Assembly (NCBI GenBank): GCA_028714455.1
Contig: JAQTMG010000002.1
Span: 102,047-166,046, forward strand
Direction: 5' to 3'
DNA from: Patescibacteria group bacterium
GTDB lineage: Bacteria; Patescibacteriota; Patescibacteriia; CAIXNZ01
DNA: 64,000 nucleotides
This document shows positions 4,558 through 34,752 of this stretch, piece after piece (position 1 is the stretch's first letter; every line of letters starts with the position of its first letter). The translations under genes and the position numbers were made by a program. The notes beneath the pieces are model-generated. The model saw nothing but the letters and a program-made list of their open reading frames with translations. It was not told the DNA's origin and searched no databases.

Positions 4558-4642
4558 ATTAGGTGATTAGTAGAGTGTGATTAGTGACTAATATCCATTC
4601 ACTCTCCACCAAACCCTCCACGCTCCACACTCAACGCTAAAC
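4558..4642. repeat. MITE-like intergenic repeat, copy 1
   Basis: Shares GTGATTAGTGAC(T/C)AATATCCA(T/A)T(C/T)ACTCTCCAC and CTCCAC/CTCAAC-rich tails with the copies at 10198, 21026 and 34659. Confidence 0.6.
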
Positions 4643-8662: not shown

Positions 8663-10195
8663 ATGTTTAAGGAAAATAATTACAAAAAATATCTTTATAT
8701 TCTCTCATTTTTTTGCGGCATGACTATCATGGCCGTGGAAATTTCGGCTTCGCGCCTTTTAGCGCCATATTTTGGCACTTCGACTTTTGTCTGGACCAAC
8801 ATCATCGGCGTGATTATGGTGGCTCTGGCCATTGGCTATTTTGTCGGCGGCAAGTTATCCGACAGGCGTCCAGATTTAAACGTTTTGCTCAAAATAATCC
8901 TGGTTTCCTGTATTTTTTTAATGACCATACCCTTTATTACTAGGCCGTTGGTGGAATTTATAACCGGCAGCATCTCAATCTGGCAATCGGCTACGAGTTT
9001 AATCTTTATCGGTTCTCTTCTGACCGTGGTCATCTTGTTTATTTTTCCGATAATCTTACTTGGTATTGTCAGTCCGTTTATAATCAAGCTGCTTTCTCTG
9101 AAAAATGGCAACGTAGGCAATGACGCTGGACTGGTTTTTTCCATCTCAACCGTTGGCAGTATTGCGGGAACTTTTTTGCCAGTGCTGGTTTTTATTCCCT
9201 ATCTCGGCACCAGGAAAACAATTTTAATTTTTTCCTTGTCTTTGCTGGTAATCGCGATTATTGGTTTGTTTCCCAAAAAAATTTCCTTGATTTTTCTTTT
9301 ACTTTTTATTCCTGTCATTGTTTTAAAAATGCCAGCGATCAAATCCGCCAATGCTGTGGCCGAGGGTGAGTCCGTCTATCAATATTATCAGGTGGCTGAC
9401 CAAAATAATTTTAGATATTTAAAAATCAATGAAGGTATGGGCGTTTTTTCCGTGCTTAACAAAAGTTCAGACAGCGTTTTAACTGATTCTTATTTTGATT
9501 ATTATAATATTTTGCCTTACATTGACGGCCAGAGTAAAAAGCAAGATGTCCTTATTTTGGGTTTAGCCGGCGGCACAGTCAGCACCCAGTTGAATCATTT
9601 TTTTGCCAACGACTTTGATCTGCATATTGACGGCGTGGAAATAGACAAAAAGTTAATTGAAACGGCCAAAAAGTATTTTAATTTGGAGAATCCCTCTCTG
9701 ACCATTTACAATTTAGACGGCCGAAATTTTTTAGATTATTACCAAAATAAATATAACGCAGTGGTGATTGATGTTTATTCCAACCAGCTGTATATTTCTT
9801 TCCACCTGACCACCAAAGAATTTTTTGATTTGGTAAAAAATCATCTGAAGCCTCAAGGTATCGTGGCCATGAATGTCAACGCTACAGGTAAAGATTCGGC
9901 GCTTTTAAAAAACATCACCAATACCATGCTTTTGAGTTTTAAAAATGTTTATACGGTCTGGACCAGTAATTACAGCTGGAACTATTTAGTGATCGCCTCT
10001 GATAGCGATTTAGATTTCAAAGATTTGAAAAATATCAAAGTTGATCCGCAGTTAAGATCAATTATTGATAATACCAGACAAAATGTTGAGAGGGTTGAAT
10101 ACGACAACAAATTTGGTTTCCTGACAGACGATAAAGCGCCAATTGAAAATTTGACTGACTGGATGATAATTGATTATGTATATAAGAATATGTGA
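8663..10195 (+). CDS. spermidine/spermine synthase family protein fused to an N-terminal polytopic membrane domain
   Basis: C-terminal LILGLAGG...IDGVEID...VVIDVY matches the aminopropyltransferase fold. About six transmembrane helices at the N-terminus. Confidence 0.6.
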   Translation: MFKENNYKKYLYILSFFCGMTIMAVEISASRLLAPYFGTSTFVWTNIIGVIMVALAIGYFVGGKLSDRRPDLNVLLKIILVSCIFLMTIPFITRPLVEFITGSISIWQSATSLIFIGSLLTVVILFIFPIILLGIVSPFIIKLLSLKNGNVGNDAGLVFSISTVGSIAGTFLPVLVFIPYLGTRKTILIFSLSLLVIAIIGLFPKKISLIFLLLFIPVIVLKMPAIKSANAVAEGESVYQYYQVADQNNFRYLKINEGMGVFSVLNKSSDSVLTDSYFDYYNILPYIDGQSKKQDVLILGLAGGTVSTQLNHFFANDFDLHIDGVEIDKKLIETAKKYFNLENPSLTIYNLDGRNFLDYYQNKYNAVVIDVYSNQLYISFHLTTKEFFDLVKNHLKPQGIVAMNVNATGKDSALLKNITNTMLLSFKNVYTVWTSNYSWNYLVIASDSDLDFKDLKNIKVDPQLRSIIDNTRQNVERVEYDNKFGFLTDDKAPIENLTDWMIIDYVYKNM

Positions 10196-10197
10196 GG

Positions 10198-10305
10198 AGT
10201 TGAGAGTAAGGAGTGGAGGGCTTAGTGGAGAGTAATTGGATGTTGGTCATTAATTACCCTCAACCAATTACCTAACGCTCAACTCTCCACTCTCCACTAT
10301 TTACC
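10198..10305. repeat. MITE-like intergenic repeat, copy 2 (palindromic version)
   Basis: GAGTTGAGAG...CTCAACTCTC arms. Contains AGTGGAGAGTAATTGGAT, the reverse complement of the core in copies 1 and 4. Confidence 0.6.
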
Positions 10306-10365
10306 AAATGGAAGGTTTGCATGGCGGTCTAGTGCGCACGCCTGCCCCGTACCAATATTTATCAA

Positions 10366-10404
10366 GGAAGGATGGCCGAGAGGCTGAAGGCATCCAGCAC
10401 CAAC
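10366..10404 (+). other. tRNA-Ser-like 5' half (acceptor plus D-arm), part of a nested RNA scaffold
   Basis: GGAAGGA-TG-GCC-GAGAGGCTGAA-GGC. It pairs with TCCTTCC at 10531-10537. The 11-bp helix ATCCAGCACCA/TGGTGCTGGAT brackets the inner tRNA. No T-arm. Confidence 0.35.
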
Positions 10405-10406
10405 GC

Positions 10407-10494
10407 GGAGGGATCGCATAGTGGTCTAGTGCGCTTGCTTGGAGAGCAAGTGTGTCGCAAGGCACCGCGAGTTCAAATCTCGCTCCCTCCGCCA
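10407..10494 (+). tRNA. tRNA-Ser(GGA), complete with encoded CCA, nested inside the interrupted outer tRNA
   Basis: Acceptor GGAGGGA/TCCCTCC. Anticodon stem CTTGC/GCAAG with loop TTGGAGA. Long variable arm. T-arm GCGAG-TTCAAAT-CTCGC. Discriminator G then CCA. Confidence 0.8.
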
Positions 10495-10630
10495 TGGTGC
10501 TGGATTAATAGCGGGGGATATTAATCTCATTCCTTCCGCACATTTTTAAAATATTGGTACGGGGCTTGGAAAGCGTGTTGGGCGCAAGCCCTCGTGGGTT
10601 CAAATCCCACACCTTCCGCCATTAATTTAC

Positions 10631-10659
10631 TTGACAAATATTATTTTTGTGCTATAATT
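10631..10659 (+). promoter_or_regulatory. consensus sigma-70-type promoter (TTGACA, 17 nt, TATAAT)
   Basis: Exact -35 and -10 hexamers at a 17-nt spacing. Confidence 0.6.
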
Positions 10660-10681
10660 ATTAAAGAATTTATCCTAAATT

Positions 10682-10705
10682 CTGCTGAACGTCAGCGGAT
10701 TTTTT
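10682..10705 (+). terminator. hairpin plus T-run between the promoter and typA (attenuator-like)
   Basis: CTGCTGA-ACG-TCAGCGG followed by ATTTTTT. Confidence 0.45.
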
Positions 10706-10759
10706 ATTTATGTTCCGCTAAGTTCTATATTCTCTATTCTGTATTCTAAATTCTAAGCT

Positions 10760-12562
10760 ATGAGCATAAGAAACGTCGCCATTATCGCACACGTTGACCA
10801 CGGCAAAACCACGCTCGTGGATGCTTTGCTGCGCCAATCAAAAACATATTTAGGCAAGGAAATGAATGAAAAGGATTTGATCATGGACAGCAATGATTTG
10901 GAAAGAGAGCGCGGCATCACCATTTTTTCTAAAAATGCTTCAGTGATCTGGAATGGCATAAAAATAAATATCATTGACACGCCTGGCCACGCCGATTTCG
11001 GCGGGGAAGTGGAGCGCGTTTTAAACATGGCTGACGGCGTGCTGCTTTTGGTTGACGCCAAAGAGGGACCAATGCCGCAGACGCGTTTTGTTTTAAAAAA
11101 AGCTCTAGAAATGGGTCACAGAGTGATTGTAGTTATCAATAAAATTGATAAGCCAGATGCTCGTCCTGATTATGTTCTAGACAAAACCTTTGATTTGTTC
11201 GTGGAACTGGGCGCTGATGATCAGGCTTTAAATTTTCCAGTTATTTATGCCGCGGCCAAACAAGGTAAGGCGGGACTAGAATCAGATTTAAGCAAAATGC
11301 AGGACATCACGCCGATTTTTGACGCCATCATCAATCATATTCCGGCTCCGATTTCTAATACTGAAAAACCGTTACAAATGTTAGTCACGACCGTGACCGC
11401 TGATAATTTCCGCGGCAGAATTGCCATTGGCAGAATTTATAATGGCAAAATTAAAGCCGGACAAGACGTGATGCACATAAATCGTGAAGGCCAAATGACA
11501 AAATTTCGTTTGGTTTCCTTGATGACTTTTGTGGGCTTGGGCCGTATTGATATTCAGGAAGCAGTAGCCGGCGATATCGTGGCTATTTCTGGCATACCCG
11601 AAGTAAATATCGGCGAAACAATTGCTGACGCTGAAAATCCCAACGCCTTGCCGCTTTTAAATATAGAAGAGCCGACAGTGAAAATGACTTTTATGATTAA
11701 TGATTCTCCTTTTGCCGGCAAAGAGGGCGAGTTTTCAACTTCACGCCAAATTCAGGAGCGCTTGCATAGAGAATTGGAAACTGACATGGCTTTGCGCGTG
11801 GAAAATAACGCCGCTGGCACCTGGACCGTTTCAGGACGCGGTGAATTGCACCTGGCGATTTTAATTGAAAGAATGAGACGTGAAGGTTATGAATTTCAAG
11901 TTTCCAGACCGCAAGTTATTAATAAAGAAAAAGATGGAAAAACCTTAACTCCATTTGAAAGAGTCTTTATTGAAGTGCCTGAACAATATTATGGTTCATG
12001 CATTCAAAAACTTGGCAGTAGAAAAGGTGAGTTAAAAGAAATGAGAACGCTTGATGGCATTACTTATTTAGAATTTGTAATCCCTACTCGTGGTCTTTTT
12101 GGCTATCGCAGTGAATTTTTAACAGACAGCCGCGGTCTTGGTATAATTAATACATCTTTTTATCAATACGATCTTGACCCCAATAACTGGGGTGAAAAAG
12201 AACAGGGCTCGTTAGTTGCTCATGAAACAGGCACCTCGCATTTGTATGGTTTGGTTAATGTGCAGGGCAGGGGAGTTTTATTCATTGGACCAGGCGTTTC
12301 TGTTTATGAAGGCCAAGTTGTCGGTCTAAATTCTCGACCAGGCGATATTCGTGTTAATGTCTGTAAGGAAAAACAACTCTCAAATATGCGCTCCAAGGGT
12401 GACGGCGGCGCTGAACACTTTAATAAACCAAAGGAAATGGATCTGGAAGATGCTTTGGAATTCATCGGCGACGATGAACTTGTTGAAGTTACGCCAAAAA
12501 ATGTCAGAATCAGAAAGGTTTATCTTGATGAAGTGTCTGCCAAGAGAATGGCCAGAAAATAA
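10760..12562 (+). CDS. typA: translational GTPase TypA/BipA
   Basis: AHVDHGKTT and DTPGH G-domain motifs, with EF-G-like domains. Confidence 0.9.
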
Positions 12563-16270: not shown

Positions 16271-17017
16271 ATGATTAACAAAATTATAAAATTTACTTTT
16301 TTAGGCCTGCTAATAGTGGGTGTTTTTTCACTAATCGCCTGGGTAATCTTTGAGTTCACCCTTGATGATCCAAAGGGTGAGGAAAATGCGGTTAAAAAGA
16401 TTTTTTACCAAGCCGCGAGTATCTTGCCTGTCTACCCGGCGGTTGATTTGACCGTGCCTTACCACCATCAACAGCACGCTCTCTCCTGTGAAGTTGCTTC
16501 CTTAACTATGGCCCTAAATTACAAAGGCGTAAAAGTAACTGAAAACGAGTTAATCGCCCAGCTGCCTTTTTCTTTTACCGGACCTCGCCAGACCGGCAAT
16601 ATCTGGGGCGATCCTAATTTAGGTTTTGTCGGCAACATTGATGGCACCATGCCCAATACTGGCTATGGCGTTTATGAGCAGCCGATTTATGATTTAGCTT
16701 CTAAATATCGCTCGGCTAAAATTATTACCAATGGCACTGTCGCTGATTTAATTACGGAATTAGTAAATGGCAATCCTATCGTTGTCTGGGGAGTGGTCGG
16801 TAGCGGCAAAGATATTTCCTGGAAGACACCTAACGGAAAAGTTATCAGCGCCAAGCTGGATGAGCACGCCAGGACTTTAATCGGCTTTACCGGTACGTCA
16901 GATAATCCCAAATTACTTATTTTGGACGACCCGATTTACGGCAAGATAAGAATGTCAGTCAGCAGCTTTCAAAAAAATTGGGGCATGCTGGATAATAGGG
17001 CAGTGGTAATTTATTAA
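16271..17017 (+). CDS. membrane-anchored papain-like (C39-like) cysteine peptidase domain protein
   Basis: N-terminal transmembrane helix. QQHALSCEVASLTMAL places a Cys nucleophile in a C39-like context. Confidence 0.4.
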   Translation: MINKIIKFTFLGLLIVGVFSLIAWVIFEFTLDDPKGEENAVKKIFYQAASILPVYPAVDLTVPYHHQQHALSCEVASLTMALNYKGVKVTENELIAQLPFSFTGPRQTGNIWGDPNLGFVGNIDGTMPNTGYGVYEQPIYDLASKYRSAKIITNGTVADLITELVNGNPIVVWGVVGSGKDISWKTPNGKVISAKLDEHARTLIGFTGTSDNPKLLILDDPIYGKIRMSVSSFQKNWGMLDNRAVVIY

Positions 17018-20024: not shown

Positions 20025-21026
20025 ATGAACAAATTCTATACTCAATTTAATGACATTTTAAAAGATCAGCCTGCTTACAGAGTTAAGCAAATTAAGCAGG
20101 CTATTTTTGTTGAGCTAATTGATAATTGGGACAAGGCCATGACTTTGCCCAAGAAACTTAGAGCTGAACTGGCAAAAAAAGTTCCATTGGAAGTTAAAGC
20201 GCAAATTTTTGAATCAAAAGATGAGGACGCGATCAAAGCTTTGATTACTTTAGGTGATGGTTTAAAAATTGAAACTGTTTTAATGAAACACAATCGTAGA
20301 AATACTGTTTGCGTTTCCTCTCAAGTCGGCTGCCCTTTGGGCTGTAAATTTTGTGCCACAGGCGCCATGGGATTTAAAAGAAATCTGGAAACCTGGGAAA
20401 TTGTCAGTCAGGTTTTATTCTTTGCCAGAAAATTAAAAATCACCGGCGAAAGAATTGATAACGTGGTTTTCATGGGCATGGGCGAGCCATTTTTAAATTA
20501 CAATAACGTTATGGAGGCCATTAGAATTTTAAATGACGCGCATGGCCTGGCTATTGGTATTCGCCATTTTTCAATTTCAACCATTGGCATAATCGAGGGC
20601 ATTGAAAAATTTGCTGATGAAAAAATGCAAGTCAACCTGGCCATCTCCTTGCACGCGCCAGATGATAAGACCAGAATCAGCATCATTCCTTGCGGCAAAA
20701 AATATACAATTCACAAAATTCTTGAGGCGGTTGACGATTATATTGCCAAAACCAATCGCAAAGTTATGTTTGAATATCTTTTAATAAAAGGGGTTAATGA
20801 TTCTGATGATTTTGCTTTAAAATTAGCGAAATTGATGAAAAAGCCGCTTTATTTTGTCAACCTAATCACGTATAATAAGACTGGAGCCTATCAACCGCCT
20901 TCCACAGATAAAATTAAACATTTCAAAGATATTTTGGAAAAGAACAGAGTTTTTACCACACTGCGCTACAGATTTGGCGCTGATATTGAAGCGGCGTGCG
21001 GACAGCTTGCAGCTGGCAATAAGTAG
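20025..21026 (+). CDS. rlmN: 23S rRNA/tRNA (adenine-C2)-methyltransferase RlmN (radical SAM)
   Basis: CPLGCKFCATG is the CxxxCxxC radical-SAM cluster, set in an RlmN/Cfr-like context. Confidence 0.85.
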   Translation: MNKFYTQFNDILKDQPAYRVKQIKQAIFVELIDNWDKAMTLPKKLRAELAKKVPLEVKAQIFESKDEDAIKALITLGDGLKIETVLMKHNRRNTVCVSSQVGCPLGCKFCATGAMGFKRNLETWEIVSQVLFFARKLKITGERIDNVVFMGMGEPFLNYNNVMEAIRILNDAHGLAIGIRHFSISTIGIIEGIEKFADEKMQVNLAISLHAPDDKTRISIIPCGKKYTIHKILEAVDDYIAKTNRKVMFEYLLIKGVNDSDDFALKLAKLMKKPLYFVNLITYNKTGAYQPPSTDKIKHFKDILEKNRVFTTLRYRFGADIEAACGQLAAGNK

Positions 21027-21125
21027 AGAGTTGAGCGTGGAGAGTTTGGATATTAGGAATTGGTAAATAGTGTATTAATTTCCCTCCACCAATTACTTAT
21101 CACTCCACTCTTTACCCTTTACCCC
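21026..21125. repeat. MITE-like intergenic repeat, copy 3
   Basis: GAGAGTTGAGCGTGGAGAG...CCACCAATTACTTATCACTCCACTC. Confidence 0.55.
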
Positions 21126-34658: not shown

Positions 34659-34752
34659 GGAGAGTGGGTTAAGTAATCAGTTAAACGTGATTAGTGACCA
34701 ATATCCAATTACTCTCCACTAAATCCTCCACTCTCTACTCTCAACTCTAAAC
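34659..34752. repeat. MITE-like intergenic repeat, copy 4
   Basis: GTGATTAGTGACCAATATCCAATTACTCTCCACT is near-identical to copy 1. Confidence 0.6.

Follow-up and report, generated by a model that had tools for sequence, protein, structure and literature searches.

A nest of three tRNA-Ser genes in a Patescibacteria genome, probably built by a mobile cassette that carries a replacement tRNA

Our study concerns a locus at which genes for serine tRNAs lie one inside another, in a 64-kb stretch of contig JAQTMG010000002.1 (hereafter the window) from a metagenome-assembled genome of Patescibacteria (candidate phyla radiation, CPR). The nest (10310-10621) lies between spdS, which encodes a fused MFS/spermidine synthase (8663-10195), and the gene of BipA/TypA (10760-12562); the protein encoded upstream of it is NCBI MDD5341122.1. 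It consists of three tRNA-Ser shells, which we call outer (O), middle (M) and inner (I), and of two stems, A and B, that lie between them (Table 1). The whole interior of O is an insert placed within the anticodon loop, between G34 and G35.

Table 1. Components of the nested tRNA-Ser locus and the candidate promoter upstream of it, in window coordinates
Feature	Position	Strand	Description
Candidate promoter TTGAAA-16-GATAAT	10143-10170	+	from a consensus scan; could drive the whole nest
O 5' half	10310-10344	+	acceptor GGAAGGT; D arm GCA-TGGCGGTCTAG-TGC; anticodon stem CACGC; loop C32 U33 G34
Stem A left arm GCCCCGTACCAATATTT	10344-10360	+	terminal inverted repeat, starting at G34 of O
Insert (cassette A and cargo)	10345-10565	+	221 nt, between G34 and the second TTG copy; no credible open reading frame (ORF)
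M 5' part	10366-10391	+	acceptor GGAAGGA and canonical class-II D arm TGGCCGAGAGGCTGAAGGC; anticodon-stem 5' strand gone
Stem B left arm ATCCAGCACCA	10392-10402	+	pairs with 10495-10505; apparently homologous to the start of stem A (CCCAGCACCAA versus CCCCGTACCAA)
I, tRNA-Ser(GGA)	10407-10494	+	intact, CCA encoded; anticodon arm CTTGC-UUGGAGA-GCAAG; found by ARAGORN and Rfam
Stem B right arm TGGTGCTGGAT	10495-10505	+	begins immediately past the CCA of I
M 3' remnant	10506-10541	+	degenerate loop and stem TAATAGCG; degenerate T arm GGGGG-ATATTAAT-CTCAT; acceptor TCCTTCC at 10531-10537; GCAC replacing GCCA
Stem A right arm AAATATTGGTACGGGGC	10549-10565	+	complement of the left arm
O 3' half	10566-10621	+	full 7-nt loop UUGGAAA, stem GCGTG, variable arm, T arm, ACCTTCC-G-CCA

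Three shells and two stems

The outer shell is structurally complete and split after G34. Its acceptor (GGAAGGT/ACCTTCC-G-CCA) and anticodon stems (CACGC/GCGTG) are accompanied by a variable arm GGGC-GCAA-GCCC and a T arm GTGGG-TTCAAAT-CCCAC. A first-pass annotation of this DNA had proposed that removal of the insert restores a tRNA with anticodon GGA, which we could reproduce in silico: joining 10344 to 10569 gives a product of 88 nt that ARAGORN calls tRNA-Ser(GGA). The same annotation took the D arms of O and I to be identical. They have in common an identical stretch of 12 nt, but the arms themselves differ (GCATGGCGGTCTAGTGC versus GCATAGTGGTCTAGTGC), including a change from A14 to G. Position 14 is invariant, and all six intact or formerly intact relatives have an A there.

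The middle shell has an acceptor stem (GGAAGGA at 10366-10372 paired with TCCTTCC at 10531-10537). Ordinary tRNA-Ser(UGA/GCU) genes elsewhere start with the same 26 nt as M, which shows the 5' half of M to be a canonical tRNA-Ser 5' half. The 3' remnant falls in direct-repeat family D3. When aligned to the 3' halves of O and I, M lacks the 5' strand of the anticodon stem, the variable arm and the T-loop invariants, and it looks clearly like a decayed pseudogene shell. A metagenome scan with the 26-mer from its 5' end, rather than with the arms of the stems, returned no further nests; its three hits were ordinary tRNA-Ser(UGA/GCU) genes of unrelated organisms. In an unrelated metagenome contig (L114), a tRNA-Ser(UGA) is followed, around 1480-1780, by a tandem repeat (about 120 nt), each unit of which ends in CTCTCTCCGCCA, resembling a tRNA 3' end.

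Within the nest, ARAGORN and Rfam report I (RF00005, tRNA, 57.4 bits) and neither outer shell. This inner gene is 86% identical to a stand-alone tRNA on the related contig L086, and would be the sole shell that is still a working gene. Its anticodon loop, like that of the tRNA of another related contig (L082, 6729-6816), has G37 (UUGGAGA and UUGGAGU, respectively), in contrast to the A36-A37-A38 usual in UCN-reading tRNAs. Its anticodon stem CUUGC/GCAAG shows compensatory changes relative to the CACGC/GCGUG that is common to O, to the tRNAs or shells of L084, L086 and L116, and to M', an M-type shell of L085 described below.

Stem A had been annotated as a perfect basal helix of 16 bp; the perfection holds, but the helix has 17 of 17 pairs, joining 10344-10360 to 10549-10565. 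Stem B is made of shorter inverted repeats, of 10-11 bp (an 11-bp helix). Over their first 11 nt, the arms of A and B agree at 8 positions (CCCCGTACCAA versus TCCAGCACCAA), and an arm copy in L085 (CCCAG) restores the C at position 1. Seven pairs are invariant between the two stems and three are altered on both sides. These likenesses are suggestive of homology, with pairing that may have been kept through two-sided changes; the comparison involves two sequences, and 49 of 500 shuffles reached the observed covariation score.

The minimum free energy fold of the 312 nt of the nest is very stable (-149.9 kcal/mol, z = -7.3, with none of 100 shuffles as stable). It recovers three levels, in the order outer cloverleaf, long basal helix, tRNA-like middle shell, second helix and inner cloverleaf. 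All the elements listed in the first-pass annotation are present in the sequence, and its observation of a nested locus is confirmed.

The locus in related genomes

Relatives of the locus were gathered through homologues of both flanking proteins and the contigs that encode them, which gave seven related contigs with six distinct arrangements. Contigs L116 and L115, whose BipA and SpdS are 95% and 69% identical in amino acids to those of the window, have a single uninterrupted O-type tRNA-Ser(GGA) (GGAAGGT...CACGC-TTGGAAA-GCGTG...ACCTTCC-G-CCA). Directly after this tRNA come the BipA promoter and leader hairpin that are also present in the window. DNA similarity between the window and L116 (84.7% identity) starts at 10564, i.e. 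at the 3' half of O. That half is 96.6% identical to its counterpart in L116/L115, with both differences forming one compensatory pair of the variable arm, and the 5' half of O is alignable with the same uninterrupted tRNA. The window reads CACGC CTG [insert] TTG GAAAGCGTG where L116 reads CACGC TTG GAAAGCGTG: the CTG at 10342-10344 is repeated as TTG at 10566-10568, and L116 has one TTG. L116/L115 is thus the empty site that the first-pass annotation had suggested looking for, and the window corresponds to L116 plus 221 nt and a second copy of YTG. These flanks resemble a 3-bp target duplication, with one mismatch (CTG versus TTG) in one complete element. Cassette B, the shorter-stemmed unit, is flanked by TTG at its left, as seen in L085, and by a degenerate TTA at its right, as seen in the window.

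The nearest relative by spdS is L085 (73% identity in amino acids, 71% in DNA). At the orthologous position past the spdS stop, it has 13 nt of the 5' half of O (GTAAGGTTTGCAT) and a degenerate stem-A arm, followed by M, a B arm and the 5' half of I that are 94% identical to the window. Here I is itself broken, after CTTGC-TTG, by a fresh A arm, a spacer and another M 5' half (47 of 48 nt). This second copy, M', keeps the anticodon stem CACGC-TTG and therefore is not a copy of the resident M, which has lost it; M' is interrupted again after its TTG (CCCAG...) before the contig ends. In L085, the same cassette end thus adjoins a different (I-type) tRNA, at the same nucleotide, which makes this an independent insertion.

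Broken shells of the same tRNA occur in three further contigs. L084 has an orphan 5' half (GGAGAGT...CACGC-TTG), a hairpin of 30 nt, GAAAGC, an ORF for a 98-aa GIY-YIG protein and a complete O-type tRNA. L120 has a 5' remnant, a hairpin of the L084 type, an orthologous GIY-YIG ORF (68% amino acid identity), a complete tRNA and a 3' shell whose TTG and GAAA have the hairpin exactly between them. In L086, a complete I-type tRNA precedes an unrelated hairpin and the decayed 3' shell of a tRNA that is homologous to the one of L082 (score 44, against a shuffle maximum of 30). L082/L083 have a clean tRNA. The GIY-YIG proteins of L084 and L120 are single-domain, of UPF0213 type (PDB relatives 1zg2 and 1ywl), and score only 17 bits against the model of group I intron endonucleases. 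The 30-nt hairpin (TTCYGCG.AGCGGAATGCCGCT..G.GGCA), at 5629-5655 of L084 and at 714-740 and 1169-1195 of L120, lies just 5' of the GIY-YIG ORF. Its sequence is not related to the stems of the window, but it occupies the same position, exactly between TTG and GAAA of a broken tRNA-Ser(GGA). We had considered the L120 hairpin as a degenerate D arm and dropped the idea when the alignment score fell inside the shuffle range.

Together, insertion junctions follow the anticodon-loop YTG in O (window), in I and M' (L085) and in the shells of L084 and L120; the breaks are at 34/35 in these five cases and at about 35/36 in L086. Each interrupted shell adjoins an uninterrupted tRNA of the same anticodon, with the exception of the L085 contig, which ends inside the nest. 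At this single conserved locus, tRNA-Ser(GGA) genes with at least four types of acceptor stem have succeeded one another. Elsewhere, 20 Patescibacteria-like BipA loci among GTDB species representatives (L001-L019, L024) had no adjacent tRNA-Ser. Of four additional relatives, the BipA contigs P0122 and P0124 begin at BipA or carry no tRNA, P0128 (L117) has BipA in another gene context without a tRNA, and P0003 is syntenic with a spacer of 290 nt.

The independent Logan assembly L081 (SRR22315509) matches the window at 100% from the upstream gene through 10440, and the left half of the nest, at least, is not specific to one assembly. This contig, from the same organism, terminates at 10440, 1 nt short of the recurrent insertion point in the anticodon loop of I, and several contigs of close relatives are short or stop within the tRNA locus. 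Such ends could reflect filled and unfilled variants in the population, or mere repeat-induced breaks.

The surroundings of the tRNA have features of their own. Between the spdS stop codon and O, the window has an imperfect hairpin of about 105 nt (10196-10309) that is missing in L085, where the tRNA remnant starts 2 nt past the spdS stop. Its relatives at ~34690-34747 (-), 4559-4621 (-) and 21026-21096 (+) make it one of four copies, in 64 kb, of a dispersed intergenic family that is REP-like (repetitive extragenic palindromic) or MITE-like (miniature inverted-repeat transposable element). On the other side, the region 10631-10710 contains a sigma-70 promoter that matches the consensus perfectly (TTGACA-16-TATAAT, with TG); it precedes the BipA start at 10760 and is followed, after about 23 nt, by a terminator-like hairpin with a T-run (10681-10699). 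The same arrangement is found in L116 (2470-2550) and may be a leader or attenuator for BipA. The genes beside the tRNA also vary between L116 (1760-2368), L084 (6004-6573), L120 (1268-2017) and the window (16271-17017), and include SMI1_KNR4, Imm5-like immunity-type and Peptidase_C39_2 genes. The variability of these neighbors suggests that the tRNA locus is a hotspot for variable cargo. Toxins that target tRNAs could be a selective driver of the turnover of tRNA alleles.

Probable insertion of a cassette and the alternatives

Our results make it probable that the nest was built when a mobile cassette that brings a replacement tRNA entered, twice in succession, the part of a tRNA-Ser(GGA) gene that encodes the anticodon loop. 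In this scenario, the resident gene O would have been cut after G34 by a cassette of 221 nt with perfect inverted repeats of 17 bp that brought the tRNA-Ser M, itself already split at the same position by the homologous, shorter-stemmed cassette B, which would have brought the tRNA-Ser(GGA) I. The comparisons above show site-specific insertion after G34 in independent events, with inverted repeats, an empty site, arms and cargo that move jointly, and self-nesting. As cargo and target are one and the same gene, the cargo would be open to the next copy, which would give the Russian-doll arrangement. The cassette might be mobilized by an enzyme acting in trans, either a transposase acting on the terminal repeats (in the manner of MITEs, with a 3-bp TTG duplication) or an endonuclease that stimulates homing or recombination. 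The first-pass annotation had offered a miniature mobile insertion with a replacement tRNA as one of its two readings. This one has gained from the empty site of L116/L115, the reinsertion in L085, the inverted repeats with their YTG/TTG flanks and the broken shells of L084, L086 and L120.

A consensus scan found no promoter-like site inside the insert, and the strong site at 10631-10658 was assigned to BipA. With no apparent promoter of its own, the cassette would be expressed from the gene that it disrupts, presumably by read-through from the promoter of the resident tRNA. The leader-trailer stems A and B could isolate the fold of the cargo; RNase P and trimming at the 3' end would then free it, and RNase III may also cut the stems. 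We read O as inactivated and I as working because interrupted shells adjoin an uninterrupted tRNA, M is a pseudogene, O has the A14G change and the outer shell of L085 is decayed. O would then be a recently killed shell that is still tRNA-like.

Several observations weigh against this interpretation. Only one complete element could be examined at both ends, and its flanking repeat is imperfect (CTG versus TTG). No further copies of the A or B arms occur elsewhere in the 64-kb window, whose 62 ORFs match only housekeeping families in Pfam scans (e.g. MurB, GatA, a P-type ATPase, DnaG, RpoD, AlaRS, ribosomal proteins and glycosyltransferases); these scans found no transposase, integrase, homing endonuclease, GIY-YIG or RtcB. 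The GIY-YIG proteins of the relatives are of UPF0213 type, not classical homing endonucleases. O retains every helix, and its variable-arm change relative to L116 is compensatory. The L085 contig stops within the nest, leaving its right side unseen. Finally, the M 5' half and B arm of the window and L085 are identical at 39 of 41 nt even though spdS is 71% identical in DNA, a likeness that points either to a unit that has recently spread horizontally or to selection on that part. Scans of viral contigs with the A/M junction, the right arm, the L084/L120 hairpin, the 5' half of I, the degenerate junction and the GIY-YIG protein gave nothing or chance 15-mer matches, and blastn against phage genomes gave no match.

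Could the nest instead act at the level of RNA? The other reading of the first-pass annotation was a new kind of bacterial tRNA intervening sequence. In such a class, the hairpin insert at 34/35 would be excised from the RNA and the halves ligated by proteins, with O and I both functional. If true, two tRNA-Ser(GGA) species would come from one nested precursor, with a tRNA gene housed in the intron of another. The complete set of five helices and CCA in O, the acceptance of its spliced product by ARAGORN, the perfect helix that juxtaposes its halves at the base of the insert and the occurrence of hairpins at 34/35 in three unrelated sequence forms all fit such a class. Bacteria, however, are known to lack the splicing endonuclease. 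The 62 ORFs scanned, all from the 64-kb window, include neither EndA nor an RtcB-type ligase. The absence of a group I core and of a bulge-helix-bulge (BHB) motif, already stated in the first-pass annotation, agrees with the Rfam search and the predicted fold. The group I model (RF00028) had no match at the gathering score in the window, none at E <= 10 in 10150-10760, and none in L082, L084, L085 and L086; an assignment of the insert to any Rfam family was rejected, with no match even at E <= 10. In a BHB intron, the exon-intron junctions form a 4-bp helix flanked by two 3-nt bulges, one on each strand; this candidate was rejected too, as the predicted junction has bulges of 3 nt and 2 nt, both on the 3' strand, beside the 17-bp helix. 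No interrupted tRNA-Ser(GGA) was seen among the relatives without a complete neighbor, save on the truncated L085 contig. Group I introns are common in the tRNAs of Patescibacteria, and interrupted tRNAs are thus tolerated in the phylum (PMC13011429), but here M and the outer shell of L085 are decayed and O carries A14G. We consider an intervening sequence very unlikely, and infer that the locus is not an RNA intron and that interrupted shells appear to die. A scaffold role is unlikely as well, though less so: shells and stems might be retained for RNA processing, like the stalks of rRNA operons, and control the maturation or level of I, with mobility being secondary or ancient. The nearly unchanged M 5' half and B arm beside a decayed outer arm in L085, the pairing of the A and B stems through three two-sided changes and the very stable fold would be expected of a scaffold. 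Yet, the same tRNA does without one in L116, L082 and L086, the losses of M are irregular, and the covariation is weak, being drawn from two sequences and matched by shuffles.

Explanations at the level of DNA without mobility are unlikely too. An immobile, one-off local rearrangement of paralogous tRNA-Ser genes, by duplication or hairpin template switching, followed by decay, could draw on the relatedness of the three shells, on the 12-nt identity between the D arms of O and I, which could mediate recombination, and on the lack of a mobility gene nearby. But tandem duplication cannot produce shells whose 3' halves follow one another in the opposite order to their 5' halves. In L085 the cassette end is joined to a different tRNA at the same nucleotide, where the flanking stem is of I type, and a homologous crossover is thus excluded; M' is less decayed there than the resident M, and L116 has a clean empty site. 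The anticodon-loop breaks of L084 and L120 (34/35) and of L086 (~35/36) are also independent, and we regard a rearrangement as improbable. A chimeric join of several tRNA-Ser genes during assembly would account for the breaks, within the locus, of relatives' contigs and of the Logan contig from the same organism. However, the left 131 nt of the nest were recovered in an independent assembly, the halves of each shell are complementary in three different sequences, which is unexpected for a chimera, and the flanks are collinear with those of the relatives. Of all the explanations, an artefact seems the hardest to believe. Insertion of a cassette with a replacement tRNA therefore remains the reading that we prefer.

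Relation to known systems

If the preferred reading is right, the cassette is selfish DNA that disables a tRNA gene at its anticodon, makes itself indispensable by supplying the replacement and, as a carrier of its own target, invades itself, while probably borrowing the promoter of its victim. It would be a hidden source of tRNA allele turnover in this clade of Patescibacteria. It would also pose a problem for annotation and assembly, where the inner gene alone gets called and contigs break in the nest. The nest would further offer a natural precursor, akin to a tRNA scaffold, for processing by RNase P and RNase III, and the relatives give a lead on a possible role of the widespread small UPF0213 GIY-YIG proteins. 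Our search of the literature on nested, split or disrupted bacterial tRNAs, anticodon-loop MITEs and UPF0213/YhbQ gave nothing relevant, and in particular no description of nested bacterial tRNA genes.

Several known systems interrupt stable-RNA genes and resemble the locus in part. Group I introns lie at 35/36 in the anticodon loops of tRNA-Asn and tRNA-Asp of Patescibacteria (Nakagawa et al. 2026, PMC13011429). They share with our insert the phylum, the approximate size (about 200-250 nt) and the location in the anticodon loop, whereas the insert of the window has no Rfam group I core, its interior consists of tRNA shells, a tRNA with the same anticodon accompanies it uninterrupted, and shells appear to decay. 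In the BHB introns and split tRNAs of archaea (Nanoarchaeum, Caldivirga), a long helix formed by intervening or leader sequence unites the halves, as stem A could do here, but the window lacks the BHB geometry, the host is a bacterium and the insert is at 34/35, not 37/38. The intervening sequences that fragment rRNAs, which are removed by RNase III and are common in CPR, are likewise helix-based inserts in stable-RNA genes with a long perfect basal stem; unlike a fragmented rRNA, a tRNA is unable to decode once its anticodon loop is cut, and function would be restored by the cargo tRNA.

Prophages and islands that integrate into tRNA genes by tyrosine integrases also have a specific tRNA target, often the anticodon or T loop, whose function is restored by the element. 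They duplicate only the 3' part of the gene (attL/attR) and encode an integrase, whereas the cassette of the window supplies a whole tRNA and splits the old gene: a direct repeat of the tRNA 3' part, of the attL/attR type, is absent from the locus, where the old gene lies in two halves, and the 64-kb window has no gene for a tyrosine or serine recombinase.

The locus seems most like a cargo-carrying MITE or a homing cassette without an ORF. Like MITEs and other small non-autonomous elements, the insert is 221 nt long, has no ORF, and shows perfect inverted repeats, a short flanking repeat, an empty site and two diverged members (A and B). Unlike them, it carries a complete tRNA gene and inserts at one nucleotide of that same gene, its copies are nested, with none dispersed in 64 kb, and no cognate transposase was found there. 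In fungal mitochondria, GIY-YIG endonuclease cassettes supply a new end for a gene, whose displaced end stays behind as a pseudogene. Recent work has dealt with SegB of phage T4, a free-standing GIY-YIG homing endonuclease in a cluster of tRNA genes (PMC13096335). As in these systems, incoming DNA would replace a gene while the broken remnant stays, and a GIY-YIG ORF lies in the broken locus of L084 and L120; the element of the window, in contrast, has no endonuclease gene, and the 98-aa protein of the relatives has no DNA-binding domain. What sets the cassette apart from SegB, from mitochondrial cassettes and from tRNA integrases is that a whole tRNA is supplied, that the old gene is split in complementary halves and that its own cargo is targeted.

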